A program made the position numbers and the translations under genes. Positions 1 through 47,498 of a stretch of DNA of 64,000 nucleotides are shown here, one piece after another. The stretch's first letter is position 1. Each line of letters begins with the position of its first letter. Origin of the DNA: Dictyostelium discoideum (taxonomy: Eukaryota); assembly GCA_000004695.1 (NCBI GenBank), contig CM000151.3:6688001-6752000 (forward strand), in the 5' to 3' direction. Under the pieces are notes generated by a model. The model was not told the origin of the DNA, searched no databases, and worked only from the letters and a program-made list of their open reading frames with translations.

Positions 1-3000
1 AATGAATAAAGTAAACGATTGGTAATATAATTACTTTGATTTTCTGGTGACATTGGGAAATCTGAATGTAATTGATTATATTCAATAACATTGACAATTG
101 ATCTATTCATTAAGGAGAAGAAAGAATTTAATACTCTAAGACGAGTGAAATCCATAATATGTGGTCTTTGACCAGCATCTTCTAAAACTTTATGAACCAA
201 ACCACCTGGTTCAAAATATTGTGAAATAATTGCTGCACATTCTTTTTGAACTTTTAATCCAGCTGGTATCATTGAAGTTGTTGAAGTGGTTGAACGTGAT
301 GATGATGATGTAGTTGGTGGTGAAGTTAAAATTGGTGAAGTAATAGTTGTTTGTTGTTGTTGTTGTAATTGAGCATTTTCATTTCTTTTTTGTTGTTCTT
401 TTTCTTGTGGATCAAATGGTTCATTTGAAAGAGTATCTAAATAATTTTGGAAAATCATTTGAGTTGTTAAAATCTCTTCACTAAACCAAACCATACCACA
501 ACGTGAAATGGTAGCGAGTGTTGCATATTTAAGATCTTGTACTTCAAACATAACTCTAACATTATTTGGAAGTGCTAAACGTTCACCATTTGGAAGTGTT
601 AATAATTTATTATCATCCAAGAGAGAGTTCAAATTTTCTACCCATTCTGGATCAACATCACCATCGAAAATGATCCAATGACGTTTAGTGGATTCACCAC
701 GAACATTATCAATGATACGACGAAGGGTTGCAGTGAATAAACCATCGGTCCATTCACGAGTTGTTAAATCCAATGAACCAAATAATTGATCTTTGGTGAT
801 AGCTTTTGGATCCATAACATGAGCTTCGGATTTAATGTTATCAACTTGTTCGATGGCTTCTAAATAAACCTCCCAACTTGTAGTTTTACCACCACCAGAT
901 GGACCAACCATCATAACACCATGATTGATATTGAGAATTTGATGTAATTGAAGGATCTTTTCAACCCATTCTTGTTTGGTAACCAAATGTCTTTGTTTGG
1001 CAATTTCTTGAATCTTTTTACGTAATTGATCCATTTGAATTGGTTGTAATTGTGAACCTGGGAAAACATCCAATAACAATGATTGAATCAATGGAATATC
1101 GTCAGCAACCAATTTTGGAATCATGGTATCATTGATAGAGTTTAATAACACACCAATTTCATATTGACAATAGATTTGATCAGCTTTAGTTTTTGATTCA
1201 GCATCAGTGATTGGTGGTAATTGTGGTGGTTGACATTTTCTCTTGATACCACCTGCACTAACTAAAACACTCTTGAGAGCACGTAAACCAAAATCATAAT
1301 GAGATTGAGCTGACAATTGTTCTTGACAAAGTTTAAAGAGTGGAACGATTTTACCGGCTAAAACTTCTGCAGTTTTAAAGCCTTGACTGTATAACATAAC
1401 TTGAGCAATCATTTCACGATCTGGTTTAATCATGGCCATTGAACGGAAAAGTTTCTTTAAATTATCTGGTAAATTGGAACGACCTGCATAACCTGGATTC
1501 ATTGTTACAAAAATACCCATATCTTGGTGGAGTGAAATATTTTTACCACCTAAAAGTTCAACCTCTTTGGAATTCTCTTTGAGAGCGACTTGAATGGTTT
1601 GAATTTGTTGAGAGACAGCAGAGAGAATTCTTTCCTCCAAACGATTGAACTCATCGAAACAACCCCAAGCACCACATTGACAAAGACCAACGAAAATACG
1701 AGACATAGCTTGAAGATCAAAACCTTCATCACAACAGAAAACCAATACGAAACGACCCAATTGACTACCCAATGCTTTAACGGTTTCAGTTTTACCAGTA
1801 CCTGCTGGACCAAATGGATTACCACCCATTCTACTCTCCAATGCTTGAGTTAGTGTAAGATAACAACGATCAGTTAATGGAGTTTGAACCAAACGTTCAC
1901 CAATACCTAAATATTCGAAACCATAATAAAAAGTAGCATTTGCCATATGGATGACCAATTTATGAAGAACATTCTCTTGAGTAGCATCATAATAGTAACG
2001 CATATGATAGAGCCAATCAAAATCTTTATTACCAGTAAGGTTTTTACATTTTTGTAATTGTCTGACCACATCACGTTGATGAACCAACTCTGTAATTAAA
2101 TGTTCGAATTTCTTTCTCTTTTGAGCGGATAAATCTTGTAAAACACTATCGGCCAAATTATTTAAAATCATTTGAGTGGTTTGTTCAATGGATTGTAATT
2201 GTTCTTGAATCTTTGATTGTTGTAATGTACCACCACCTAAAGCTTGATCGACTTGAGTGGACCAAACAATTTGACTTGTAAGAAGGACCAATTGAGTTGG
2301 ATAATTATCAACCCATTCAGAGTATTTAGAATGATCATTAACATCGACTTGATTGAAATGTTGTAATGATTCACTTAATAAAGTTGCCAAAGTTGATTTC
2401 ATTTCAGATTCAACCATTGTTAACCATTCATGAATCTTTGGACCATTAGCGATGGAAATTGGTTTCTTAAAGGTAACGGTTTCACCTTCAGCAGAGGACA
2501 TACCAATAATGGTGGTTTTTTCATCATCCAAAGTTAAATTAGCCAAACCAGCAAACATCTTTCTGAAATGCTTTTGAATCTTAATGATATCTTTACTATT
2601 ACCAATGATTTCCAAAAGATCTTCATCACCTACGAAATAGAAACGAGCAAATGCAGATCTTTGTCTCTCCAAATATTCACCCAATGCTTTTTGAACTTTA
2701 CCCAAGAGATCGGATAAACGTTCCATAGTTTGTTGAATTCTTTCAATGGCCAATACTTCCAAAATCAATGGTGCACCACTAACCTTTTTAAGGATTGCAA
2801 TGAATTCAGAGTTGATACTCTTGAAACGAGTTGATTCAGCTGGTAACAATTGATTGATATCACCACTACCACTGAAAATACCTTCTAAATAGACCCAACG
2901 TCTTTGAACATCGATCCAAACATCCAATAATGATCTAACCTTATTTAATCTATCATCCCAATGATTTGCTTCCTCTTCGAAAACCTTATAGTATGGTGAC

Positions 3001-6000
3001 ATTTTCATAGCGGAAATTGAATTCAAATGTTCTGCCAATTTGTTGAATAAATCATCCCAACCACGTACCAATTTACATTTACGTTGATAGTTAACGAGAT
3101 CCAATTCGAGAGTTGTCCAAAATTCTCTAACACCTTTAAGGAATTCCTCTAAAGCAATTTCACCTTGAGCTGCAGTGATAACCTCACGATAGATATTTTC
3201 ATTTCTTGCTAAATCTGAATCCCAAATGGAACCCAATGTTAACTCTGTAATGATCCAATTGGTATTTAAACGTTTCTTTAAAATTTTCCAATGACGATCT
3301 TTGATGGCTTCAGAGTGAAGATCGGTGATGATTGCATTACCTTTGAGATAGATTTTAATTAAGTTTTGAGCATGATCAAAGGCAGAGTATTGACGAATAC
3401 GATTTGGTAAATTTTTCAATTTTTGTAAAGTATCTTCCAATGATTTTCTAACTTTTCTTGGAATGATAGCAGACCAAGCAGTCTCTTTAAGACTATCGAT
3501 TTCTTGCCATGTATTTGAAAGTTCGACCCAAACTGCTTTCAAATCTTGAATCTCCTCTTCGACTGGTACCAAACGATCTTGATCTGATGATGATGAACCA
3601 GTGGTATCGGTGAGATCCAAAGCTTGTTTGGCTTTTGATAAACGATCACTTTCCTCACGAAGACGAATAAGACGACCTTCGAAAATCTTCAAAGTTTCAA
3701 GAGCGGTTGAATGTTTAATTGAGCCTTGTAATGGTTTATTGGCGGTCCATTCATCAATGAAATCTTTGATACGATCATTGATTGATTTTGATTCTTGAAG
3801 GATTTTAGCTTGTAATTGTGGAATGGCCTCGCTGATTGTGGCATTCTTACGATTGAGGATCTCATTGAAAGCACTCCATTCACCTTCTACTCTTTCACAA
3901 TCTAACCAATCGTTTGGGAAACTAAATCTTTGACGTTGTAATAAATCTTGACCAGTACGATAATAACGTAAATCTGCCTCCCAAGATGAGAGTTTCTTTT
4001 TCATATCTTGAATTTGAATGATAAAATGAACGGCCTCTTCAGTGGAAACGGTTTCAACTGATAATTTCTCCAACTCTTGACGAGATGATGAAATGGTCTC
4101 ATAGAATTGATTCATTTTCTCTGCTAATTTAGAACCGAAATGACCAAGAATATCCTTATGCCAATAGTCATATTTATTATTAACTGATGCTTGAACTTGA
4201 GTATAATCAATAGTTAATGGTCCAAATTGTTTCTCTGTTGATGAATTATCAAAGGTTGATCTTGATTTTTTAATTTGATTCAAAAGTAATTGCCATTTAT
4301 TAAGATCATCACCTAATTTACTATAGACAAATGATGAATCCATATCCCAAAGTGATTGATATTGTAACCAAATTGAAACATATTGTTGAACTTGTTCCAA
4401 TTTATTAGTGATTGCACTATAGGCACTCTCCAATGAACCTTGTGGTAATTTTGGTAACATATCTCTAAAGGTTGATTGTTTCTTTGAATCTACACCACCA
4501 CGATGAACCATTGCTGATTCATCATAACGACTTGATTGAATACGTGGTAAATCACAACAAATATTTAACCAACTATGTAATTGATCAATCCAATTAACAC
4601 GTGCAACTTCTAATGGTGGTGATAATGATAAAATTTGATTTCTAATTACAATTTCATGAATAGTTTTTTCTAATTTTGGTTTGATTGAAATTGTTTGTTG
4701 TTGTTGTTGAGATTGTTGTGGTTGAGTTAAATCTGATGAATTTTCTTCATCAGATTTATTTCTAATTGAATAATTCATTCTATTTAATTTGCCACCTTTA
4801 TTTGAAGATCCAGAAGTGGATTGAGAATCTTTTTGATCTTCTTTACCTTCAATTAATTGAACCCAAGAATTGATTGCATCAATTAATCTTTCAATTAACA
4901 TTGATTCAACTTGAGCATCCAATTGAGTTACCCATTGAGGTAAATTTGAATAATTTGCCAAATTCAATTCATCTACAACCTTTTGAATGTTTGCAATGAT
5001 TTCATTGAATGATTCAGATTTGAATGGACATGATTTTAATCCATCCAATTGTTTCTTGATTTCAGAGTATTTAACGATTAAATCATCAACTTTATCACGG
5101 AAATTATTGATTGAGGTTGAAAGTTTTCTAACGTATGGATCAACTTTTGGAATGGTTTCCCATTTCAAACGGAAACCTTCAGTGATGTTAGCTTGAACGT
5201 CACGTTTATAACTTGCGACCAATGTTGAAAATTCAGGAGTGACTTTACCAGAGGTTTGAGCATAAGTTCTTAAGGTTTCTTTTAAGGAGACTGCAAATGG
5301 ATAAACTTGTTTAGCACCTTGACTAATGAATGAGATTTTCAATGGTACACGGAAACCTAACCATTGTAAATTTCTAACTTCTTTAAATAACATAATGATA
5401 TGACTATCGAAATTGATATCCAATGCCAATTTGTTACCACGTTTAACGATTGTTAAAATTCTACCAGAGATATCAAATGAACGTTTCTCTGTTTCATCGG
5501 CCCATTTTGAAAAGATATGGTCAGTGTTTAATTTATGTCTAAATTGATCGGATTCTGATTTTAATTTTTGACCTTCAGCATCACTCTCCCAACTATCACC
5601 TAAAACATTGGCAACTCTTTTCATGTAGGTATCCAATTGTCTTTCGATTTGTCTTGCCCAAATGATAGCACCACTAACTGGTGGAAGATCACGTAATTGA
5701 CTCATATAGTATGCTTCAGAATTATTATATTGCATTTTGAATTTATCATGTAATACTCTAATGTCTTCTTTAACTCTTTCAATCAATTGTGATTCATATT
5801 CGTGAGTTGCACCTCTAATCTTTGGTCTCTTTAAAAGATCTTTAAACTTTTGATAAACTCTAAACATTTCATTTGCATTCTTTGCTGTTGCTAAACGATC
5901 ACGTAATTTGACGGTGATATAAGTTTCAACACGATCAGTACGAGAATTGTAACGTTTTACAACTGCATCCCAAATCTCTTCACCTTCTTTTGATAATTGA

Positions 6001-7391
6001 AGTACATCAATCTCTTTAAATTCTAAATAAGCTTGATTAATCTCTTCAATTGCATTAATTTCTTGTTTTTGTGGTGAAGTTGGATTTGAAGTATTTGTTT
6101 GAACAACACCACCACCCAATTGACTACCTGGTAAAACATTTGAAACTACATTCTTTAAATCTTCATGTTGTTTTCTAAATTTACCAATTTTAATAATTAC
6201 CAATTGAATACGATTATCAATGTTAACAATGAGTGGAATACGTTCATTACCTCTCTTTTTAGCTAAATCACGAAGAATATCACGAAAAGCTCCAAATTGA
6301 TCATCCCATAAAGTGAATAATGCTCTAACGGATCTATTTAAATGTTCAAAATCATTGTAATCGATATTCATTAAATTCTTTTGACGAAGGATTTGATAGA
6401 CTTTATTACACATATCTCTACCAATGGCCTCAAGGAATGAAAGATAACGTGGAATTGGATAGTATGGATTCTTTGTTTTCTTTAAATGAGAAAAGATTGC
6501 CGCTACACTTGAAGAGATTGAATCCAAATCGGTTGCAGTTAACAATGGAGTGATTGGGAAATCTTTAAAGAGTGTTTTATAACTTTGTACTTTATCCATG
6601 GCTTTTCTGACACCAATGGTATCGGTTTCAAATGGAGCACTTGCAATGAAACGTTTAGCTTGTCTTAAGGTGGCCAAAGTAACTTCAACCTCTGGTGATT
6701 TCAATTGTTGATCAATATTTTGAAGTGAAGTTTCCAATTCAATCCAAAAGTTAATCTCTTGACTGGTGGATACATCTGATGGTAAATTCTCGATCAAATT
6801 ATGTTTGGTAACATTTTGAATGTTTTTAGCCCAAGTGGTTGTACCAGCTTGAAGTAAATTCAAAAATTCAGGTGATGATGCTTTGTCACCTAAATCATCT
6901 GGTTTAATGGTACGACCAGTGGTTTCTTTTAATCTCTTTGAGATTGATTTAATCTCTGGATTGATTGCTAATGTTACCTCTGGTATTTGAACTTGTTGTT
7001 TACAATTGTATAAAGAGATCTCTAATTCTGCTATCTTTTGATTGACTGCACCAATACTTTGTTTCATCTCCTTATCCAAATTTTGACTTGTAATTGATTT
7101 ATCTGCACTACCACCACTTGGTGTAGTTGCATCATCTTTTGATGCTGATAAAATATATGATCTAACAAATGGTGCAACTGAATTATGAATATAATTATGT
7201 AATGTATCCATTGGTGATCCATCTCCTAAATTTAAAACTTGAAGTTGTGATGCAATCGATTTATTTGAACTATATTCAACAATACTCTCTGGTATTCTCT
7301 TTACAATTGCTAATGTTGATTTATTTTCACCTCCAAATTTAACTTCAATTTCAAAATTAAATGATTCTAAAATAATTTTTTTTTTTTAGTT

Positions 7392-7422
<31 letters not shown>

Positions 7423-7830
7423 ATTATTATTTTTTTGTTTTTTTTTTTTTTTTTTTTTTTTCATACCTTTTGATTGTTGTTGTGATGAAGTTAAAGTATT
7501 ATCATCAGATGATGATGATGATGAAGTTGTTGTTGATGTTTGATTTGAACTATTTATAGTTGGATTTGTTTTTTGAATAAGTAATACAGGTATTTTAGAA
7601 TCAGAGATGAATTTTTTTAATTTATTCATATTCTCTGGTGGAATTTGATTTGAAAGATTATTTTGAAATACAGATTGGTCACCATCTAATAAGGTTGGAC
7701 AAATTTTACATAAATATTTTACTGTTTCTTCTAAAGTTTGTTCACTAATTACTGAAGTTGTTGGTGTTACAACTGGTGGTGTATTTGTACCACTAGTTGG
7801 TGAATCAACATTTATTTGTTGATCCTCCAT
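1..7830 (-). CDS. dhcA: Cytoplasmic dynein heavy chain, N-terminal ~2,580 codons. The 3' end runs off the window start. Exons on the minus strand: 7830..7467 and 7366..1, with intron 7466..7368 (GTATGA...TTTTAG).
   Basis: The protein starts MEDQQINVDSPTSGTNTPPVV. After splicing it continues ...SKG|ESFNFEIEVKFGGENKSTLAIVKRIPESIVEY... as an open tail-domain sequence. The AAA1 P-loop GPAGTGKTET (around 1790-1811) and the AAA2 P-loop GPSGGGKTT (around 880-905) lie in the same reading frame (codon starts congruent to 2 mod 3) as exon 2, so the ORF is continuous from 7366 to the window start. Dictyostelium has a single dynein heavy chain. Confidence 0.9.
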
Positions 7831-7981: not shown

Positions 7982-8105
7982 TTGATGAAAGACGAAACTT
8001 TTCAAACTATTATTTTTTTTTTTTAGTTTTTTAAATTAAGTGGTGATCAATGAAAAAAAAAAAAAAAAATATTATTGAAAAAAAAAAAATAAAAAAAAAT
8101 TAAAG

Positions 8106-9416: not shown

Positions 9417-10490
9417 ATGGCAGATACAACATTATTATTACAAAAATCTTATACATTAATTCAACAAGCAGCGATAAGTGATAGAAATGGTCAATATAGT
9501 ATAGCATTAAATTTATATACAAATGGATTGGAAGGTCTTATGTCTGCTTTGAAATTGGAAAAGAATGATAGAGTAATACAAACATTAAAAATAAAGATAA
9601 CAGAATATTTCAATAGAGCGGAACAATTAAAAGATATAATAAAGAAAGGTTATGTTGCACCACCATTACCAACAACAAATCAATCGTGTCACGATTGTGT
9701 CGCATCACCACCACCAACACCATCACATTATCAACCACCACAACCTGTATATAGACCAACTGCACCAACTGCACCACCTCCATCACAATATCATCCAATA
9801 CCAACAAATACCGATGATTTAATATTACCAAGTGTTCCCACTTTCAATCCACTACCAACTCCACCACCACCATTTAACCCATCTGTTACAAATAATATAT
9901 CATCGACAAATTCATCATCAACAAATTCATCATCATCATCATCGTTAGGATTAGTTTCAAGTAAAAAAATTGAAAATGGTTCAATTGGTAATTCATATGA
10001 AACATTATTTGGTGATAAATTAATTGGGAGCACGTGGATAAAAGTTGAAGATCCATATATTAGAACTAGACATCAAATTGATAACTTTGTAAAATTAATA
10101 GAATTGGTAATATCAAAATGTATTTTTAAAGATTTAAAATCTCAATCAGATAGTAGTTTTAAATTACAAAAACCATCAACTAAATTTAAGATTGACCTAA
10201 CTACATCAACTGAATCCCAACAACAAGAAGATGAATTAAAATTAACATTCTATCAACTTAAGGATCAAATTTCGACACAATATAATATAGTTTTTAATTA
10301 TCAATTTTCAAGTACTATTCACGATCGTTCAATTGAATGTAGTAATGGTTATCTCATAAAATAAGGTAGAGGATTGGATTTCTATCAAAAACCACTCAAT
10401 AATAATAATGGTTTATTTAGTCAAGTTTCAACTTTTAATCAAGATTTAAAACCTTGTTTAGAGTGTAATATTGATATATTTAAAAAATGA
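9417..10490 (+). CDS. MIT-domain protein, MITD1 ortholog. It has an N-terminal MIT three-helix domain, a Pro-rich linker and a C-terminal PLD-like domain. The annotated ORF ends at an in-frame TAA (10362-10364), but the same frame stays open for 41 more conserved-looking codons to a TGA at 10488-10490.
   Basis: The N-terminus LIQQAAISDRNGQYSIALNLYTNGLEGLMSALKLEKNDRVIQTLKIKITEYFNRAEQLKDIIKK has the MIT pattern seen in the Vps4 and MITD1 MIT domains. The C-terminal SYETLFGDKLIGSTWIKVEDPYIRTRHQIDNFVKLIEL ... SSTIHDRSIECSNGYLIK(stop)GRGLDFYQKP...DIFKK resembles what I recall of human MITD1 (…WIEDPYIRHTHQLYNF… …[29 protein letters not shown]… …DIFHKK). Confidence 0.7.
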
Positions 10491-10813: not shown

Positions 10814-11438
10814 ATGGATAATAATAATAGTAATAATAAAAATAATGAAGAAAGTAATAATATTGTAATACCAATTTTAAGTGAAAAAGAAAAAAAACAT
10901 TTATATGAATTTGAAATAATAAGAATATTAAAAAAAGATGAATTTTCAACAACATGTAAAGCAAAGAAATTAAGTGGTCAATTTAATGAGAAACGAGTTA
11001 ATTTTTGTATTATAAAAATTATTAAAAAGAGAGTAAAGAAATTTGATTCTAAAAAAAATGAAATTATAATTGAAATCGATCCAAGAAAAGAAAGAGAGAT
11101 ATTAGAAAAGATTAAACATATTTGTGTTTTAGAATATTATGGGTATAGTGAAGATGAAGATAATGGGTACATATATACAGAATATATTCAAGGTGGTATT
11201 GATATAGTTGAAACTGTGACTAATAAACTATTAAAAGAACATTCTCATTCTTTTCAATCTGAAGATATAATTAGAAGATGTGCTTTTCAATTGGTTTTAT
11301 TATTAAATCATTTACATAACAATTTACATATTATTCATGGTAATATAAATACTGATAATGTTTTAATAGCTGATCAAGAATTTAGTTTAAAATTATTTGA
11401 TTTTAGTTTATCAAAAGATATAAGTTATTATTCAAAAG

Positions 11439-11531
<93 letters not shown>

Positions 11532-13796
11532 CTAATAATAGTAATAATAATACATTAAATAATTTAAGTATTGTTAATAATAATAGTAGTAGTAGTAGTA
11601 ATGATAATAGTAGTGAAGCAGAAGGTGGTGGTGGTGGTGGTGAAGCATCAATTACATCAACGATTTCAACTATATTATCAGGATCATCAAGTTCACAATT
11701 ATCAACACCATCAACATCATTAGAATCTTCATTTTCATTAGAAATCAATTTAAATGATTCATCATGTTATTTAATTGCACCAGAGATTAGAAATCAACAA
11801 AAGATAACAAGTAAAGGTTTATCAAAAAAATCAGATATTTGGGGATTAGGTTGTTTATTATTATTAATGGTTGGTGGTGATCCAAAGATTACAACAAATT
11901 TTGAACCAACAATACCATATCATTTATCAAACAATTGTAAAAATTTCATTCAAAAATGTTTAATTCAAGATCCATATCATCGTTGGGATACAAATTTATT
12001 ATTAACTCATAAATTTATTGAAAAAACTTCATTTGAAAATTCATGTAATAATCAAAATAATAGTTCAACAACAACAACAACAACAATTAATACATATTCA
12101 ATTGAAAATGAAGAAAATATATTATTAATTAATGGATCAAATGGTATGAATGAATTTGAAGAGATACCAAATTATATAACTACATTGAAATTTCAAGAAT
12201 CATTTAATATGGAGATTGTAAATGAAATGTTTACAGATTCAATTGTACATTTAGAATTCCCTCAAGGTTTTAATAAATTGGATTTTAATGAATTACCAGA
12301 TTTTTTATCAACATTGATTTATCATGGTGAATTCAATATTGAGAGTAATTATCATTCGAAATCTTTAAAACCAAGAGATATACCAAAGAGTATCATTCAT
12401 TTACAATTACCAAATTATAATTTAAAAATTCGTAGAAATTCAATACCTGATCAAACAAAATTCTTAATATTAGGTTCTGATTTAGGTGAGAATGAAATTC
12501 AATCATTAATTAATTTACCACCAAGTATTATAGATTTAGAATTTGGTTGTGATTTAGAATTAATTTTAAATTTTTTAACACAAGAAATGATACCATCAAA
12601 TATTACAAGTTTAAAAATTAATTCTCAACAAATATTTTTACCATTTAAAAGATCAAATCCATTTGGTTTAACTAATAATATTGGTAATAATAATAGTAAT
12701 AATGGTGAACAATTTAATATACCAATTGATGAATTACCATTATCAAAAGATATTAACGATTTAATGATATTAGAAACTGTTGAAATTAATAATTTAAATC
12801 AATTAAATTCAAATAAATTATTAACACTTACAAATAGAGTTGGTAAGTTAATATTTTCAAAAGAATTTGATGAACCATTAACAATTGGTTGTATTAAATC
12901 AAGATCAATTACATCTTTGAAATTTAATAAAGGTTCAAGATTTAATCAACTATTGGTAGTTGGTTGTTTACCTGTAAATTTAACAAGTTTAGAATTTGGT
13001 GATCGATTTAATCAAGCACTATCGGTTGGTTGTATTCCACCAAAAGTTACTCATTTAAAGTTTGGTAGATGTTTTAATCAACCTTTAAAACTTGGTGTAA
13101 TTCCTGATTCTTGTACTTTTATTCAATTTGGTTCACAATTTAATCAATCATTAGAACCAATGGTTATACCATCATCAGTTAAAGAATTAATATTTGGTTC
13201 ACAATATAATCAACCTACAATTCAAGGCACATTTCCTGATAGAATTAAGAAGTTGGTATTCTCTGATGACCATGATCAGTTTCATTCACAAGATACATTA
13301 CCAAAATCTTTAGTACATTTAGAATTTGGTGAAAGTCAAAATTTCAATCAAATTTTATTCAATCAATCTTCTTCAAATTTAATTCCATCATTAACACCAC
13401 CACCACCAATCTATCAAAAATTAACAACATTTATTTTCAATGGTTATTTCACAGTACCTTTAAAAGTTTTCGATTTACCATTATCGATAACTCATTTAGA
13501 GTTACCACAATATAATGATATCCTTGAAAAGGATTGTATACCTTCATTTGTTAAAACTTTAGTACTTGGTTCATCATTTACAATTATTGAATCATTTATA
13601 AATTTACCAAAATCAATAACTTCATTATCATTTGGTTGTGATGAAAATGTAATTGGTTTAATCAATCAATCATTAATACCACCAAATTGTAATACTTTAA
13701 AAATTAATGGTCAATCAATAAGTTTACCAATAACTCAAACTTTACAAATTTTTAAAAATCCAATTTTACCAACTGAATCTTCTCTAATATTATCTC

Positions 13797-13828
<32 letters not shown>

Positions 13829-14834
13829 ATGGATCTATCAGTTGAATATGAAAATCAAAATTTTTTAACTACAAATACTCTAAATCAAGGTTCATGGATA
13901 ATTTCAATTAATAATTTTTCAAATCGTAAAGACCAATTTTATTCTCCAATTTTCTCTTTAATTGGTTCAAATTGGCGTTGTAAATTTTATAGTAATGGTA
14001 AAGATGCTTCTACAAGTGGTAAACTTTCAATTTTCATTAGTAATTGTGATTTATTAAATAATCCTTTCACTATTTTTTTAGAAAAATCAATATCTTATAA
14101 ATTAACTTTAATTAATCAAAAAAATCCAAATGAATCAATTCAAAAAAGTAATTTTATTAATTTATATATATATATATTTTAAAAAACAATAATTTTAAAA
14201 TAATTATTAATTTTATTTATTTATTTTATTTTTTAAAATTATTATTATTATAGGTTCATCTCATACATTTAGTATTAAAGAATTTAATCATGGATATGGT
14301 TCATTTATTGGATTATTTTCATTATTAAATCCAAATAATGGATTTTTAGTAAATAATACAATAAAAGTTAGAATCGATGCAGCCCCAACTTCACCATTAG
14401 TTAATACTTATGACAAATATAATATTGGATTGAATCAAGCCTTTAGTTATAGTGTACCAATGATGTCAAAAAAGAGTGAACCATTTATATCACCAATTTT
14501 TATGAGTTGTGGAAGAAAATGGATTATTAAAATCTATCCAATGGGTCAACCTTCTTCAAATTATATGTCGGTGTTTTTAGAGTATAGAGATGAAGGTGAA
14601 GAAAATGTCCATTTCTCTCTAGAGTTAATTAGTCAATTATATCCAGAACAATCCATAAAATACTGGGTACAATATAGATTCAACTCTAAAAGTAATTCAT
14701 TTGGTTATCCAAAATTCATTGGTGTTTCAACTCTTATGGATCCTGATATGGGCTTCCTTGTTAATGATACCATTATTTTAAATGTTTCAATTTTACAACT
14801 TAAACCAATAAAAAAAAGTTTTGGATTTTTATAA
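10814..14834 (+). CDS. Protein-kinase-like (probable pseudokinase) protein with FNIP repeats and two C-terminal MATH/TRAF-like domains. Exons: 10814..14147 and 14254..14834 (phase-1 intron 14148..14253, GTAATT...TATAG).
   Basis: The kinase-like N-terminus has a Lys in CIIKII, but the catalytic loop reads HGNINTDN instead of HRDLKPxN and the activation motif is DFS instead of DFG. It is followed by an (AAT)30 poly-N tract and then many FNIP repeats (…FNQLLVVGCLPVNLTSLEFGDRFNQALSVGCIPPKVTHLKFGRCFNQPL…). The C-terminus GSWIISINNFSNRKDQFYSPIFSLIGSNWRCKFY… and the post-intron SSHTFSIKEFNHGYGSF…FISPIFMSCGRKWIIKIYPMG… are MATH-like. Splicing joins …ESIQK|SSHTF… in frame. Confidence 0.75.
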
Positions 14835-28201: not shown

Positions 28202-28478
28202 AAAAAGAAAAAAGAAAAAAAAAAAAATTGGAGCTTTTTTTTTTTTTTTTTGCAAAAAAAAATTTTTTAAATGATGTTTTTTCTTTTTTAAAAGAATTTA
28301 TTTATTTATTTAACTAGTTTTAATTACCAACACGCAAATATTTTTTTTTTCCTAAAATGATTAAGATAAAATTTTTTTTTTAAAAAAAAAAAATCATAAA
28401 AAAAAAAAAATCAATCAACCTTTAACAACTGTTGTTTAAACACTTTATATTGAGAATTTAAAATATTTGTTATTTTTA

Positions 28479-28486
28479 TTATTATA

Positions 28487-28575
<89 letters not shown>
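28479..28575. repeat. (ATT)n microsatellite of ~32 units. A second copy lies at 29101..29150.
   Basis: Perfect trinucleotide repeat visible in the sequence. Confidence 0.9.
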
Positions 28576-28576
<1 letters not shown>

Positions 28577-28630
28577 ATTTAGTATCACTCTAAAGTAGTA
28601 ATAATGTATTTTTTTAATTTTTTTATTTTT

Positions 28631-28670
<40 letters not shown>

Positions 28671-28792
28671 AAATTAAATTTTTAAGTGGTGTAAATAGTT
28701 GTTTATTTAAATTGTTTAATTATTTAAATAATTATTTAAATATATAAACATATTGAATAAAATAATAAAAATAAATATATAAAAAAATAAAT

Positions 28793-28829
<37 letters not shown>

Positions 28830-29095
28830 TAAATGGAGCGTGACGGCATTTTTTTTTTTTTTTTTTTTTTTTTTTCTGATATTGTCAAATTTTGCTTTAG
28901 TCTCCAATTAAAATTTTTTAGGATGACATTGGTATGTTTAAGTTATTGTTTTTGGTGTATCAACATTAACTTAATAAAAATGATAAAAATAAATTTATTC
29001 ATATTCTATTATGAGTGTGGTACAAGTGTGGGAACAAAAATATAATTTTTTTATTTTTTTTTTTTATTAATACTATTAATCTTGTTAAATATTAC

Positions 29096-40928: not shown

Positions 40929-43900
40929 ATTTTAGGTATGGTTGGTTATAATGAATCAATTTCAGATCCATCATATACTGGACAAATTTTAGTATTCTCA
41001 TTTCCATTGATTGGTAATTATGGTGTACCATCATTTAGAGAAAGAGATCCAGAATCAGGATTAGCAGTAAACTTTGAATCAGATAAAGCACATGTTCAAG
41101 CAATTATTTGTTCAGAGTATTGTGATGAATATTCACATTGGGCAGCAGAGAAATCACTTTCAGAGTGGTTAAAAGAATCAAACATTCCAGGTTTGTACGG
41201 AATCGATACACGTGCTTTGATCACCAAAATTCGTGAGAAGGGCTCTCTAAAAGGAAAGGTAATCATTGGTGACTTTGATGAAAGTAAATTGGAGTTTGAA
41301 GATATTAATTTACGTAATTTGGTTGCAGAAGTTTCAACCAAAGAGATTAAAGAATACAAAGCTGCAGAGAACAATAAGAAAACTGGCGAAAAAAGAAAGA
41401 ATAAAAAAGTGATCGTACTTGATTGTGGTATTAAAAATAATCAAATCCGTTGTTTATTAAATCGTGGTGTAGATCTTAAAGTTGTACCATGGGACTACGA
41501 TGTGGTTGCAAACGAATCAATCAATGATTACGATGGTGTTTTCATTAGTAATGGTCCAGGTGATCCAAGTCTTTGTGGAAAAGCAATTGAAAACATTAGA
41601 AAAGTATTGGCATTGCCAGTTGCCAAAGCAGTATTTGGTGTTTGTATGGGTAATCAATTGTTAGGTTTAGCCGCTGGTGCACAAACTCATAAAATGGCCT
41701 TTGGTAATCGTGGTCTCAATCAACCATGTGTCGATCAAATTAGTGGCCGTTGTCATATCACCTCACAAAATCATGGCTTTGTTATCGATTCAAATTCTTT
41801 ACCAGCTGGTAGTGGTTGGAAAACTTACTTTATAAATGCAAATGATGCCTCCAACGAAGGTATCTATCATGAGAGTAAACCATGGTTCTCTGTTCAATTC
41901 CATCCAGAAGCTATGGCAGGTCCAACCGATACTGAATATCTTTTCGATAATTTCGTTGATAACGTTTGTGGTGAACAACAACATAAATCACCAATGAATA
42001 AATCTAAAATCATCGATTGTCCAAAAGGTATCAATAAAGTTTTAATTTTAGGTTCAGGTGGTCTTTCAATTGGTCAAGCTGGTGAATTTGATTATTCTGG
42101 TTCTCAAGCTATCAAAGCACTCAAAGAAGAAGGTATTAAAACCATTTTAATTAATCCAAATATCGCAACAGTTCAAACTTCACCAGGTCTTGCCGATAAA
42201 GTTTATTTCCTTCCAGTTAATGCTTCCTCTGTTCAAAAAGTAATTGAAAATGAAAATCCAGATGGTATTTTAGTAACTTTTGGTGGTCAAACAGCTTTGA
42301 ATTGTGGTATTGAACTCTATAAATCTGGTATACTCGAGAAATATAATTGTAAAGTATTGGGTACTCCAATTGAAACTATCATTGCCACTGAAGATAGAGG
42401 TATCTTTGCAGAGAAATTATCAGAAATCAATGAACGTATCGCACCATCAATGGCTTGTAATAGTTTAGAGGAATCTTTGATTGAAGCAGAGAAAATTGGT
42501 TATCCAGTCATTGTTAGAGCTGCCTATTGTTTGGGTGGTTTAGGTTCTGGTTTCGCCGATAATAAAGAACAACTCACAGCATTGGTCACTGAAGCAATGG
42601 CAACCTCTTCACAAGTTTTGGTTGAAAAATCACTCAAAGGTTGGAAAGAAATTGAATATGAAGTTTTAAGAGATAGTAAAGACAATTGTATCACCGTTTG
42701 TAATATGGAAAATTTCGATCCACTCGGTATTCATACTGGTGAATCAATCGTCGTTGCACCATCACAAACACTTTCAGATAGAGAATATCAAATGTTAAGA
42801 GAAACTGCAATTAAAACCGTTCGTCATCTTGGTGTAATTGGTGAATGTAATATTCAATATTCCCTCAATCCATATAGCGAAGAATATTGTATCATTGAAG
42901 TTAATGCACGTCTTTCACGTAGTTCAGCATTGGCAAGTAAAGCAACCGGTTATCCACTTGCTTTCATCTCTGCCAAAGTTGCTTTGGGTTATGATTTAGC
43001 AGCATTAAGAAATACAATCACAAAGAAAACTACAGCATGTTTCGAACCTTCATTGGATTATTTAGTTGTTAAAATGCCACGTTGGGATTTAAAGAAATTC
43101 ACTCGTGTTTCCAATAAAATTTCATCATCAATGAAATCAGTTGGTGAAGTTATGTCAATTGGTAGAAAATTTGAAGAAGCAATTCAAAAAGCAATTAGAA
43201 TGGTTATGGATGGTGCAGTTGAAGGTTTCCAAGCTGGTGTTTTCCCAACCTCTGATGAAGAACTTGAACATCCAACTAATAATCGTATTTTAGTATTGGC
43301 AAGTGCTTTCAAAGATGGTTATTCCATTGATAGAGTACATCAATTAACAAAGATTGATAAATGGTTCTTAACAAAACTTAAAGCAATCATCGATTTAGAG
43401 AATCATTTATCAACCTATAAAGAACCATCACAAATTCCATCAGAGATTTTGAAATTCTCAAAACAACAAGGTTTCTCTGATAAACAAATCGCCAGAGCAG
43501 TTGGTACCACAGAATTGAATGTTAGAGATTATAGAAAGAAAATGGGTATCATTCCATGTACAAAACATATCGATACAGTTGCTGCAGAATTCCCAGCTCA
43601 AAACAATTATCTTTACATGACTTACAATGGTGAAACCAATGATGTAAATATCAATGAAAAATCTTATATCACATTAGGTTCAGGTTCATATCGTATTGGT
43701 AGTAGTGTTGAGTTTGATTGGTGCGCAGTTAGTTGTATTCGTACATTACGTAGTTTAGGTTTGAAATCAATTATGATCAATTTCAATCCAGAGACTGTTA
43801 GTACTGATTATGATGAATGCGATTATCTCTACTTTGAAGAACTCTCATTGGAAAGAGTATTGGATATCTATGAACGTGGTGGTCCAAATTCAAATCATGG

Positions 43901-46900
43901 TGTAATATTATCAGTTGGTGGTCAAATTCCAAACAATTTAGCCATTCCATTATCACGTTGTAATGTTAAAGTTTTAGGTACTCATCCAGATATGATTGAT
44001 TCAGCTGAAAATCGTTATAAGTTCTCACGTCTTTTAGATACCATTGGAATTGATCAACCACTTTGGAAAGAATTAACAAGTGTTTCCGATACAAAAGATT
44101 TCTGTGAATCTGTTGGTTTCCCATGTTTAGTTCGTCCATCTTATGTACTCTCTGGTGCTGCTATGAATGTAGTTCACTCTTCACAAGATCTCGAAACATT
44201 CCTTACTGAAGCTGCTGCAGTTTCACGTGATCATCCAGTTGTCATTTCAAAATTCATTCAAGAAGCTAAAGAGATTGAAATTGATGCTGTCGCCGATAAT
44301 GGTCGTATTGTTTTATTCGCAATTAGTGAACATGTTGAAAATGCCGGTGTACACAGTGGTGATGCTACCATTGTTTGTCCAGCTCAAGATCTTGATGATG
44401 CCACCATCCTCAAGGTTGAAGAAACCGCTAGAAAGATCGCTGAAGCACTCAATGTCAGTGGTCCATTCAATATTCAATTCATTGCTAAAAACAATGAAAT
44501 CAAAGTTATCGAATGTAATTTACGTTGTTCACGTTCTTTCCCATTCGTTAGTAAAACATTAAATATCAATTTTATCGAATTAGCAACTAAAATCATCATT
44601 AAACATCAATATGATCTTCCAGTTGTAAATCCAATCAATTATGTTGGTGTCAAAGTACCACAATTCTCATTCATTCGTCTTAAAGGTGCAGATCCAGTTT
44701 TAGGTGTAGAAATGGCATCCACTGGTGAGGTAGCATGTTTTGGTAATACTCGTGAAGAAGCTTACGTCAAGGGTTTAATTTCTACTGGTTTCAAAGCACC
44801 AGAAAAAAATGTACTCCTTTCAATTGGTTCATTCAAAGAGAAACATGAATTCCTTCCATCAGCTCATAAATTAATTAAATTAGGTTATACCTTATTTGGT
44901 ACTCAAGGCACTGCCGATTTCTACAGTGAAAATGGTGTTCCAGTAACTCAACTCAATTGGGATGAAGAGGATTTAGGTGAAAATGTAATTCAAAAGAAAA
45001 TGACTGAAAATACAATTCATCTCTTCATTAATTTACCATCAAAGAATAAATATCGTCGTCCATCTTCATTCATGTCAAGAGGTTATTCATTACGTCGTGT
45101 TGCTATCGATTTCCAAGTACCACTCATTACCAACATCAAATGTGCTAAATTATTCGTCGATTCTTTATCCTACATGAAAGGTCCAATGCCAATTGAAAAT
45201 GTTGATTGGAGAACAAGTAATAAGATCATTCGTTTACCAGGTTTAGTTGATGTTCATGTTCATCTTAGAGAACCAGGTGCCACTCATAAAGAAGATTGGG
45301 ACAGTGGTACAGCAACTGCATTAGCTGGTGGTTTCACCATGGTTGGTGCTATGCCAAACACTAATCCAGCCATTATGGATGATGCATCATTTGAACTTTG
45401 TAAATCATTGGCAGCCTCAAAAGCACGTTGTGATTATGGTATTTTCATTGGTGCCACTTTTACCAATACAACAACCGCTGGTAAATTCGCATCCGATGCC
45501 ATGGGTATGAAAATGTATCTCGAAGAAACCTTTGCTCCACTTCCATTAAAAGATGATATCAACGTTTGGAGAGATCATATTATGAATTGGCCAGGTACAA
45601 CACCAATTTGTGTTCATGCTGATGGTAGAAATCTTGCAGCAATTCTCTTATTAGGTTGGATGTATGATAAACATATGCATGTTTGCCACGTTTCACATAA
45701 AGAAGAGATTGATATTATTCGTGATGCAAAGAAACGTGGTATGAAATTATCATGTGAAGTTTCACCACATCATTTAACCCTTTGTGATAAAGATATTCCA
45801 CGTATTGGTGCTGGTCAATCTGAAGTTCGTCCAAAACTTGGAACTGAAGAAGATTTGAATGCACTCTGGGACAATATCGATTACATTGATATGATTGCAA
45901 CCGATCATGCTCCACACACTTGGGAAGAGAAATGTAGCGCCAAACCACCACCAGGTTTCCCAGGTCTTGAAACTTCATTACCATTGATGTTAACTGCCGT
46001 CCATAATGGTAGAATCACCATTGAAGATTTGGTAATGAAAATGCACACAAATCCAATTCGTATTTTCAATCTTCCAGAACAACCAGATACTTACATTGAA
46101 GTTGATATGGAACAAGAATGGACCATTCCAAAGAAACCACTCTATTCAAGATGTGGTTGGACTCCATTCGAAGGTCTTCAAGTACGTGGTAAAGTTGTTA
46201 AAGTCGTACTTCGTGGTCAAATCGCTTTCATTGATGGTAAAATCATTGCACAAAAAGGTTTTGGTTTAAATTTACGTTCAAAAGAATATCAAGTTGAAAA
46301 AGAAAGATTACTCAATACTACCAAACCAATTTATGATAAAATCCCAACTGTTCAATCAACAAAGAATCAAACTACAAATATTACTTCACCATCATTAATT
46401 AGTGATTCACCAAATAAAGCCATCAATAAGATTAAATCTACTTCCACTTCTACAACTCCAAATACTCAAGAACAATCAACACAACATTTACCATTAGTTG
46501 GATCAAATCTTGCATCAGCTGTATTAAATAAAAAAGAAGATACACTCCAAACTGCTTTCAATATCTCAGATAATTCATTGGCAGGTAAACATATTTTCTC
46601 AGTTAAACAATTCAATAGAAAACAATTACATGCCTTATTTGGTATTGCTCATGAAATGAGAATTTTAGTTAAGAGATCAGGTGGTTCAGATTTATTGAAG
46701 GGTAAAGTTTTAGCTACTCTCTTCTATGAACCAAGTACTCGTACTCAATGTTCATTCACTGCTGCCATGCAAAGATTAGGTGGTTCAGTTGTCACTGTTG
46801 ATAATGTATCATCATCAGTTGCCAAAGGTGAATCAATCGCTGATACCATTCAAACTTTAGAATCCTATTGTGATGCAGTTTGTATGAGACATCCAGCTGT

Positions 46901-47498
46901 TGGTTCAGTTGAAAGTGCAATTCAAGTCGCCAAAAAACCAATCATTAACGCAGGTGATGGTGTTGGTGAACATCCAACTCAAGCTTTATTGGATGTTTTC
47001 ACAATTCGTGAAGAATTAGGTACCGTCAATGGTTTAACTATCACCGTTGTTGGTGATCTTAAACATGGCCGTACCGTTCATTCTTTGGTTCGTCTCTTAG
47101 CAAACTATCAAGTTAAAATCAATTATGTCTCACCATCTTCACTCTCAATGCCAACTGAAATCATCAAAGAACTCAATGAAAAAGGTATTGAACAAAAAGA
47201 ATATACAAATATCGAATCTATCCTTCCAACTACCAATGTACTATATGTAACTAGAGTTCAAAAAGAACGTTTCCAAAGTATTGAAGAATATGAAAAAGTT
47301 AAAGATTCTTTCATTATCACTCCACATACTCTCACTAAAGCTTCTGATAATATGATCGTTATGCATCCACTTCCAAGAATTAATGAAATTAGTCCAGAAG
47401 TTGATTCTGATCCACGTGCTGCTTACTTTAGACAAATGGAAAATGGTTTATATGTCCGTATGTCACTTTTAGCTCTTGTATTTGGTGCTGGTGTTTAA
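40694..47498 (+). CDS. pyr1-3: Trifunctional pyrimidine biosynthesis protein CAD (glutamine-dependent carbamoyl-phosphate synthase, dihydroorotase and aspartate carbamoyltransferase), 2225 aa. Exons: 40694..40808 and 40936..47498 (phase-1 intron GTAAGT...TTTTAG).
   Basis: Exon 1 reads [39 protein letters not shown] and joins [20 protein letters not shown]… (CPSase small-subunit N-domain). The GATase active site is GVCMGNQLL. The two CPSase large-subunit ATP-grasp halves show …[14 protein letters not shown]… and …[14 protein letters not shown]… The DHOase has HVHLREPG, and the ATCase has …[17 protein letters not shown]…[14 protein letters not shown]… The total of 6678 nt gives 2225 aa, the length I recall for D. 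discoideum PYR1-3. Confidence 0.95.

Follow-up and report, generated by a model that had tools for sequence, protein, structure and literature searches.

The window analysed here is a stretch of 64,000 nucleotides from chromosome 2 (8,484,197 bp) of Dictyostelium discoideum AX4. On its forward strand an open reading frame of 315 codons begins with the ATG at position 9417 and ends in ...ECSNGYLIK, where it is closed by a TAA at 10362-10364. Beyond this TAA the frame remains open for a further 41 codons, which read GRGLDFYQKPLNNNNGLFSQVSTFNQDLKPCLECNIDIFKK, until a TGA is reached at 10488-10490. This is the arrangement that an earlier note on the same DNA had described. The 315-residue product is identical to a protein annotated for D. 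discoideum AX4 (XP_643186.1, EAL69254.1, UniProt Q8T127) under the name 'microtubule interacting and transport domain-containing protein'. Judged from its sequence, the locus is the single-exon D. discoideum ortholog of MITD1, consisting of a MIT domain and a PLD-like MIT_C domain. No Dictyostelium study of the MITD1 gene was found in the literature: none matched Q8T127, XP_643186 or EAL69254, and the Dictyostelium papers found to name MITD1 do so only once or twice each, never in the title or abstract. The features of the gene and its immediate surroundings are listed below; L007 is a contig of an AX2-like D. discoideum assembly, and L008 and L009 are from two divergent D. discoideum isolates.

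7983, no strand: T in the AX4 reference alone, where L007, L008 and L009 have A; in the intergenic DNA that separates dhcA from the MITD1 gene (assembly comparison)
9417-10364, forward strand: MITD1-ortholog open reading frame as annotated in AX4; exact match to XP_643186.1 / Q8T127
9438-9632, forward strand: MIT domain, residues 8-72, a three-helix bundle (Pfam PF04212, AlphaFold, matches to VPS4 MIT-domain structures)
9657-9935, forward strand: Pro/Ser-rich linker, residues 81-173, probably disordered (alignment, pLDDT)
9987-10361, forward strand: first part of MIT_C (PLD-like), residues 191-315, model positions 1-106 of 142 (Pfam)
10362-10364, forward strand: in-frame TAA, with the middle base, 10363, being A in the AX4 reference (sequence comparison)
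10365-10487, forward strand: 41 codons assigned to the end of MIT_C, model positions 108-142 (Pfam, alignment, human structures)
10488-10490, forward strand: TGA, with which the full-length 357-residue gene ends in the AX2-like assembly and the Logan haplotype
10657, no strand: T in the AX4 reference alone, where L007, L008 and L009 have A; 3' intergenic (assembly comparison)

The MIT domain is recognised by the Pfam family PF04212 with an E-value of 2.1e-18 over residues 8-72, corresponding to model positions 1-65 of 66, and it matches the MIT-domain structures of VPS4. In the AlphaFold model, which has a mean pLDDT of 70.8, the helices of this domain span residues 5-23, 27-47 and 51-77. The pLDDT is low only in the linker, where it falls below 50 at residues 81-138 and 140-173, and in two loops. 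The length of the linker is specific to dictyostelids, and this region is missing from the aligned animal MITD1 sequences. Taken alone, the 315-residue product covers positions 1-106 of the 142 positions of MIT_C (PF16565). The 41 residues past the stop, searched by themselves, match positions 108-142 of the same model with an E-value of 1.8e-5, and when the two pieces are joined the match extends over positions 1-142 of 142 with an E-value of 1.6e-37. The stop in AX4 takes the place of exactly one model position, 107 of 142, inside the domain, which by Pfam is complete only with the TAA read as a sense codon.

An open run of 41 codons had been called unlikely by chance in DNA of ~80% AT. At the local base composition (A 0.40, T 0.39) the probability of such a run is about 0.019, in line with that claim, although the tail itself is 76% AT rather than ~80%. 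By this chance statistic the stop-free run is only suggestive, so that homology provides the decisive evidence. In an alignment of 14 sequences that range from dictyostelids to insects and fish, the core motifs of the family, DPYIR, HQ..N, T.HDR.I and GRGLD, occupy invariant or near-invariant columns. The GRGLD motif directly follows the TAA (G317, R318, G319, L320 and D321, all near-invariant), and the tail encoded by 10365-10487 combines this motif with an N-rich loop and the final beta-strand. In the AlphaFold model a strand formed by residues 312-316 ends at the stop and leads into the GRGLD loop, while the terminal strand, at residues 350-356, has a pLDDT of about 95. The alignment with the human MITD1 structures 2YMB and 4A5Z starts at residue 184 and runs to the C-terminal residue, 357. 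By homology, the downstream 41 codons are the conserved end of the MIT_C domain. Both the assignment of the gene to MITD1 and the view of the downstream segment as the end of the PLD-like domain, at MIT_C positions 108-142, had been put forward in the earlier note, and both hold by Pfam, by alignment and by comparison with the human structures.

Human MITD1, an abscission factor that binds ESCRT-III (structures 2YMB for the full length and 4A5Z for the C-terminal domain), has the same MIT plus MIT_C architecture. The human and the Dictyostelium proteins have in common the IHDR and GRGLD motifs and the ...DIF(K/H)K end; the human sequence around the site, with its ...DIFHK, agrees in 2YMB and 4A5Z with the one quoted in the earlier note. 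In contrast to human MITD1, the Dictyostelium protein contains a Pro/Ser-rich linker of about 95 residues and an N-rich insertion in the tail. In the column in question human MITD1 has Ile and Dictyostelium has Leu, whereas the AX4 reference has TAA. The title of a paper of Hadders et al. from 2012 is said to describe the C-terminal domain of MITD1 as a PLD fold that binds membranes. Binding to the MIM elements of ESCRT-III, dimerisation, membrane binding and a role in abscission are known for human MITD1 only (PMC3496609). By analogy, the MIT domain of the Dictyostelium ortholog would bind the tails of ESCRT-III proteins, and its MIT_C domain would mediate dimerisation and membrane binding. 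Outside the eukaryotes, MIT_C also matches many bacterial proteins with 35-41% identity, where its partner in the fusion is a Lon-protease-like domain (PF13337), and one of these matches carries the name 'BREX system Lon protease-like protein BrxL'. The bacterial matches imply that eukaryotic MITD1's C-terminal domain has close prokaryotic relatives, at least one of which is named as a component of BREX defence.

The interruption of the AX4 gene comes down to a single base. At 10363 the AX4 reference has A where the other sequences have T, a change of TTA to TAA, within the local sequence GGTTATCTCATAAAAT[T/A]AGGTAGAGGATTGG. Codon 316 is TTA (Leu) in all eight other DNA sequences of the D. discoideum group that were read, namely the assembly GCA_054883475.1, the two divergent D. 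discoideum isolates and five environmental Logan contigs. In GCA_054883475.1 the gene (locus tag ACTFIT_004317, contig JBTAPE010000033.1; DNA in L001/L007) encodes the 357-residue protein KAM9946028.1, which differs from the conceptual translation of AX4 only at the codon for L316, the other 356 residues being identical. The remainder of the 1074-nt gene is also identical in DNA between AX4 and this AX2-like copy, and AX4, the JBTAPE assembly and the Logan haplotype have the same 123 nt after the stop. The two divergent isolates (L008, from JBTAPF, and L009, from JBTAPG) differ from AX4 in this tail only at the final stop, which at the equivalent of 10488-10490 is TAA and not TGA.

The same picture emerges at the level of the proteins. 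In the stop column animals have Ile and Polysphondylium violaceum has Trp, while nearly all dictyostelids have Leu (D. discoideum, D. cf. discoideum, D. citrinum, D. dimigraforme, D. firmibasis, D. purpureum and Tieghemostelium). Without exception the other dictyostelid homologs are full length, with 333-365 residues and an end that reads ...DIFKK or a close variant; they come from three further assemblies of D. discoideum, from two of D. cf. discoideum, and from D. citrinum, D. dimigraforme, D. firmibasis, D. purpureum, P. violaceum and Tieghemostelium lacteum. A stop at codon 316 is absent from the nine other dictyostelid proteins aligned, as it is from the eight D. discoideum-group DNA sequences. 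The earlier note had placed the TAA in a column where a sense codon is expected, and dictyostelid and animal homologs all have a sense codon there. It had also proposed to align the translation of 10365-10487 with dictyostelid orthologs; in this alignment a sense codon stands at the stop column and the homologs continue to ...DIFKK. Its expectation of an Ile codon, changed from ATA to TAA, is not upheld: Ile is the animal state, the dictyostelids have Leu encoded by TTA, and the change is from TTA to TAA. Only the AX4 reference carries an A at 10363, and the real gene most likely encodes 357 residues and ends at the TGA at 10488-10490.

The ACTFI*/JBTAP* records, to which GCA_054883475.1 belongs, stem from Holland et al. 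2025 (PMC12745789, PRJNA1300491), who assembled Nanopore and Illumina reads of AX2-214, CR116C and OT3A (called D. discoideum), M4B and S6B (possible cryptic species), three D. citrinum, D. dimigraforme and D. intermedium. AX2-214 is the only strain of the NC4 lineage in this set, and AX2 and AX4 are 99.5% identical at the tgrBC locus (PMC12745789). Three assemblies labelled D. discoideum occur in our matches, with the locus tags ACTFIT, ACTFIR and ACTFIW. The DNA of the ACTFIT assembly is 99.75% identical to the window over 20.5 kb, a value near that for AX2 and AX4 at tgrBC, the differences being almost all changes in homopolymer length, whereas in the other two the MITD1 protein is only about 93% identical to that of AX4. 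By elimination and near-identity, and not from a strain label, we infer that GCA_054883475.1 (ACTFIT/JBTAPE) is AX2-214. AX2 is a sister axenic line to AX4, independently derived from the same DdB/NC4 parent (strain table, PMC4374526).

The window was compared with 36 kb of the AX2-like contig (L007 and L010). The gene order is common to AX4 and the AX2-like assembly, with the MITD1 gene divergent from dhcA and upstream of a FNIP-repeat kinase-like gene. The first 26 kb contain three clean substitutions, at 7983, 10363 and 10657, all within 2.7 kb; all three are A/T transversions, and in each L007, L008 and L009 agree with one another against the AX4 reference. Six gene spans fall within window positions 1-25.8 kb and add up to about 21 kb, namely those of dhcA, the MITD1 gene, the kinase-like gene, a GST gene, a gene for 90 residues and a gene for 2356 residues; in them 10363 is the sole substitution with respect to the AX2-like assembly.

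The neighbouring genes deserve a brief description. The gene dhcA, which encodes the cytoplasmic dynein heavy chain (4723 residues in the AX2-like annotation), is divergent from the MITD1 gene across 1.6 kb of intergenic DNA, and its 5' part, at window positions 1-7830 on the reverse strand, shows no substitution with respect to the AX2-like assembly. Adjoining the MITD1 gene on the other side, at 10814-14182 on the forward strand, is an open reading frame of 1122 residues with, as judged by eye, a kinase-like N-terminus and long FNIP-type repeats. In the AX2-like assembly the product of this kinase-like gene has 1304 residues (L007 11393-15413) and no Pfam family on record; the open reading frame of 1122 residues in the window is thus only the first exon of a larger gene. 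Further downstream, at 28231-28850, an AT-rich region at the edge of a gene for 425 residues shows dense differences between AX4 and the AX2-like contig (L010), many of them T against A, together with small indels. This region may be a low-quality patch in one of the assemblies, or a small rearrangement or inversion. At 40938-47498, on the forward strand, lies an uninterrupted open reading frame of 2186 residues whose exact product is not on record in the assemblies of the contig index; the mismatch may come from bases or repeat lengths that differ between AX4 and AX2, or the gene may be modelled as spliced.

The five Logan contigs (L002-L006; SRR26869257, SRR26869258, SRR26869266, SRR28564542 and SRR24091725) come from three groups of SRA runs. 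Their haplotype differs from AX4 by six other substitutions and a 3-nt (one-codon) deletion in 1.2 kb, and encodes 356 residues. Since they carry a different haplotype, these contigs are not AX4 and cannot decide the AX4 base. One and the same non-AX4 haplotype recurs in the five runs, and a single wild-type strain or lineage seems to have been sampled repeatedly. In an exact-product lookup the 315-residue product had no record in the contig index, and for the 357-residue product the NCBI assembly only was returned. A 36-mer with either allele gave 0 matches in the JGI metagenome contigs.

Three explanations for the stop had been offered at the outset: an error in the reference, a strain-specific nonsense allele and programmed readthrough. 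The first two both fit an A that is private to AX4, while the third finds no support. On balance it appears probable that the TAA is a base-call error in the AX4 Sanger reference, rather than a true AX4 mutation. Codon 316 would then owe its TAA to a base-call or consensus error at 10363 in the low-coverage Sanger reference of chromosome 2, the 315-residue annotation would be an artefact, and no special translational mechanism would be needed. The substitutions at 7983, 10363 and 10657 are clustered and all private to the reference, which points to a locally weak patch of the shotgun consensus. The site itself speaks against an error, as it lies in ordinary coding sequence (…ATAAAAT[T/A]AGGTAG…) and not in a homopolymer, and in such sequence the reference is usually better.

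Published resequencing data give an impression of how common such discrepancies are. In three AX4 mutation-accumulation lines, 1916 candidate departures from the reference were common to all, and these were ascribed by the authors to reference errors or to differences between clone and reference; these shared candidates may include mapping artefacts (Saxer et al., PMC3466296). NTG mutagenesis, on the other hand, adds only 13-34 SNVs per genome, almost all of which are G>A or T>C transitions (Li et al., PMC5052037). Taken together, these numbers suggest that reference discrepancies outnumber true AX2/AX4 substitutions by about one to two orders of magnitude. Resequencing studies discard differences that are common to their AX4 lines or present in the parental strain (PMC3466296, PMC5052037, PMC10755179). 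The known discrepancies between the AX4 Sanger reference and laboratory stocks are, like the one at 10363, isolated, limited to a single base and private to the reference. Unlike the usual ones, the discrepancy at 10363 creates a nonsense codon in a conserved gene, and it was carried into the RefSeq and UniProt annotation (315 residues).

A genuine nonsense allele is a viable alternative to a reference error, though in our judgement a less likely one. It would postdate the separation from the DdB/NC4 parent that AX4 has in common with AX2, and would have arisen either in the AX3/AX4 lineage or in the sequenced clone. The AX4 reference does read A, in unambiguous and non-repetitive sequence. 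A T in the AX2-like assembly and in all wild sequences is the pattern of a recent private mutation, and the unchanged tail fits a mutation that is only decades old. According to the alignment and the structural model, the loss of G317, R318, G319, L320 and D321 and of the strand at 350-356 (pLDDT about 95) would make such an allele a real functional lesion; in human MITD1 the C-terminal domain is needed for self-assembly, and the MIT domain alone reaches midbodies (PMC3496609). These arguments are weakened by the expected rarity of true AX2/AX4 mutations, which should be far less frequent than reference discrepancies, and by the two further reference-private A/T differences within 2.7 kb, which speak for local reference quality and not for three independent mutations. 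In addition, the substitution is a transversion. As the NTG signature consists of transitions, the T-to-A change at 10363 is not an NTG-type lesion, and a lesion induced by NTG during the derivation of AX3 was rejected because the substitution class is wrong. A decaying pseudogene was likewise rejected: there is a single lesion, and the rest of the 1074-nt gene is intact, including the 123 nt after the stop.

If the A is real in AX4, the 315-residue protein keeps the MIT domain and the linker, and is without the GRGLD motif and the last core beta-strand. Judged from the human protein, truncation at K315 would probably yield a product that is unstable or misfolded, or one that acts through its MIT domain alone and can still bind ESCRT-III. 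AX4, the Dictyostelium reference strain in widest use, would then carry a natural nonsense mutation in the only MITD1 ortholog that it has, with AX2 as the wild type and perhaps a trace of UAA readthrough, an outcome that we hold to be slightly more doubtful than the allele itself. It would constitute an unrecognised difference between AX2 and AX4 in the machinery of ESCRT-dependent abscission and membrane repair.

Programmed stop-codon readthrough or another form of recoding, with a real TAA and isoforms of 315 and 357 residues, is highly improbable. What recommends it is only the pattern of an in-frame stop followed by an open and conserved extension of 41 codons, a pattern also seen in readthrough genes (of the UGA-CUAG type in animals, or UAG-CARYYA in plant viruses), which combine an in-frame stop with a stop-free, protein-like extension. 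No strain or species besides the AX4 reference has the stop, however. Since no relative has it, the conservation of the tail reflects ordinary coding, and no readthrough signal can have evolved. The context, AAA-UAA-GGU, is equally unfavourable; UAA followed by a purine (G) at +4 is among the least leaky termination contexts of eukaryotes, which is a general rule and not one specific to Dictyostelium. The 100 nt from the stop onward (10362-10461) fold no better than shuffled sequences, with a minimum free energy of -11.4 kcal/mol against a shuffle mean of -12.2 kcal/mol (z = 0.30), and 126 of the 200 shuffles do equally well or better. Moreover, the extension forms, as far as the model indicates, the core of the domain and not an optional appendage. 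Unlike the stops of readthrough genes, the stop in AX4 is thus unconserved, has the context UAA-G, has no structure downstream and is followed by what would be the indispensable end of a globular domain.

Removal of the TAA by a small intron, or its alteration by RNA editing, is more improbable still: the alignment to every ortholog runs through the residues flanking the stop without a gap, an unbroken 1074-nt open reading frame with identical flanking DNA is present in the AX2-like assembly, and we know of no A-to-U editing in nuclear transcripts of Dictyostelium. The sole GT...AG pair across the stop, which spans about 24 nt and would remove the conserved NGYLIK, was rejected as an intron; about 24 nt is far too short for a spliceosomal intron.

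The discrepancy at 10363 is of an ordinary and known kind, and there is no evidence for recoding in Dictyostelium. Its main value lies in the correction of the annotation. The XP_643186.1 / Q8T127 model is probably 42 residues short and is without the most conserved motif of MIT_C, and the correct product is most likely the 357-residue protein that has already been deposited for the AX2-like assembly. If, instead, the stop is real in AX4, the resulting difference between AX4 and AX2 would matter for work on ESCRT-III, cytokinesis and membrane repair in Dictyostelium.
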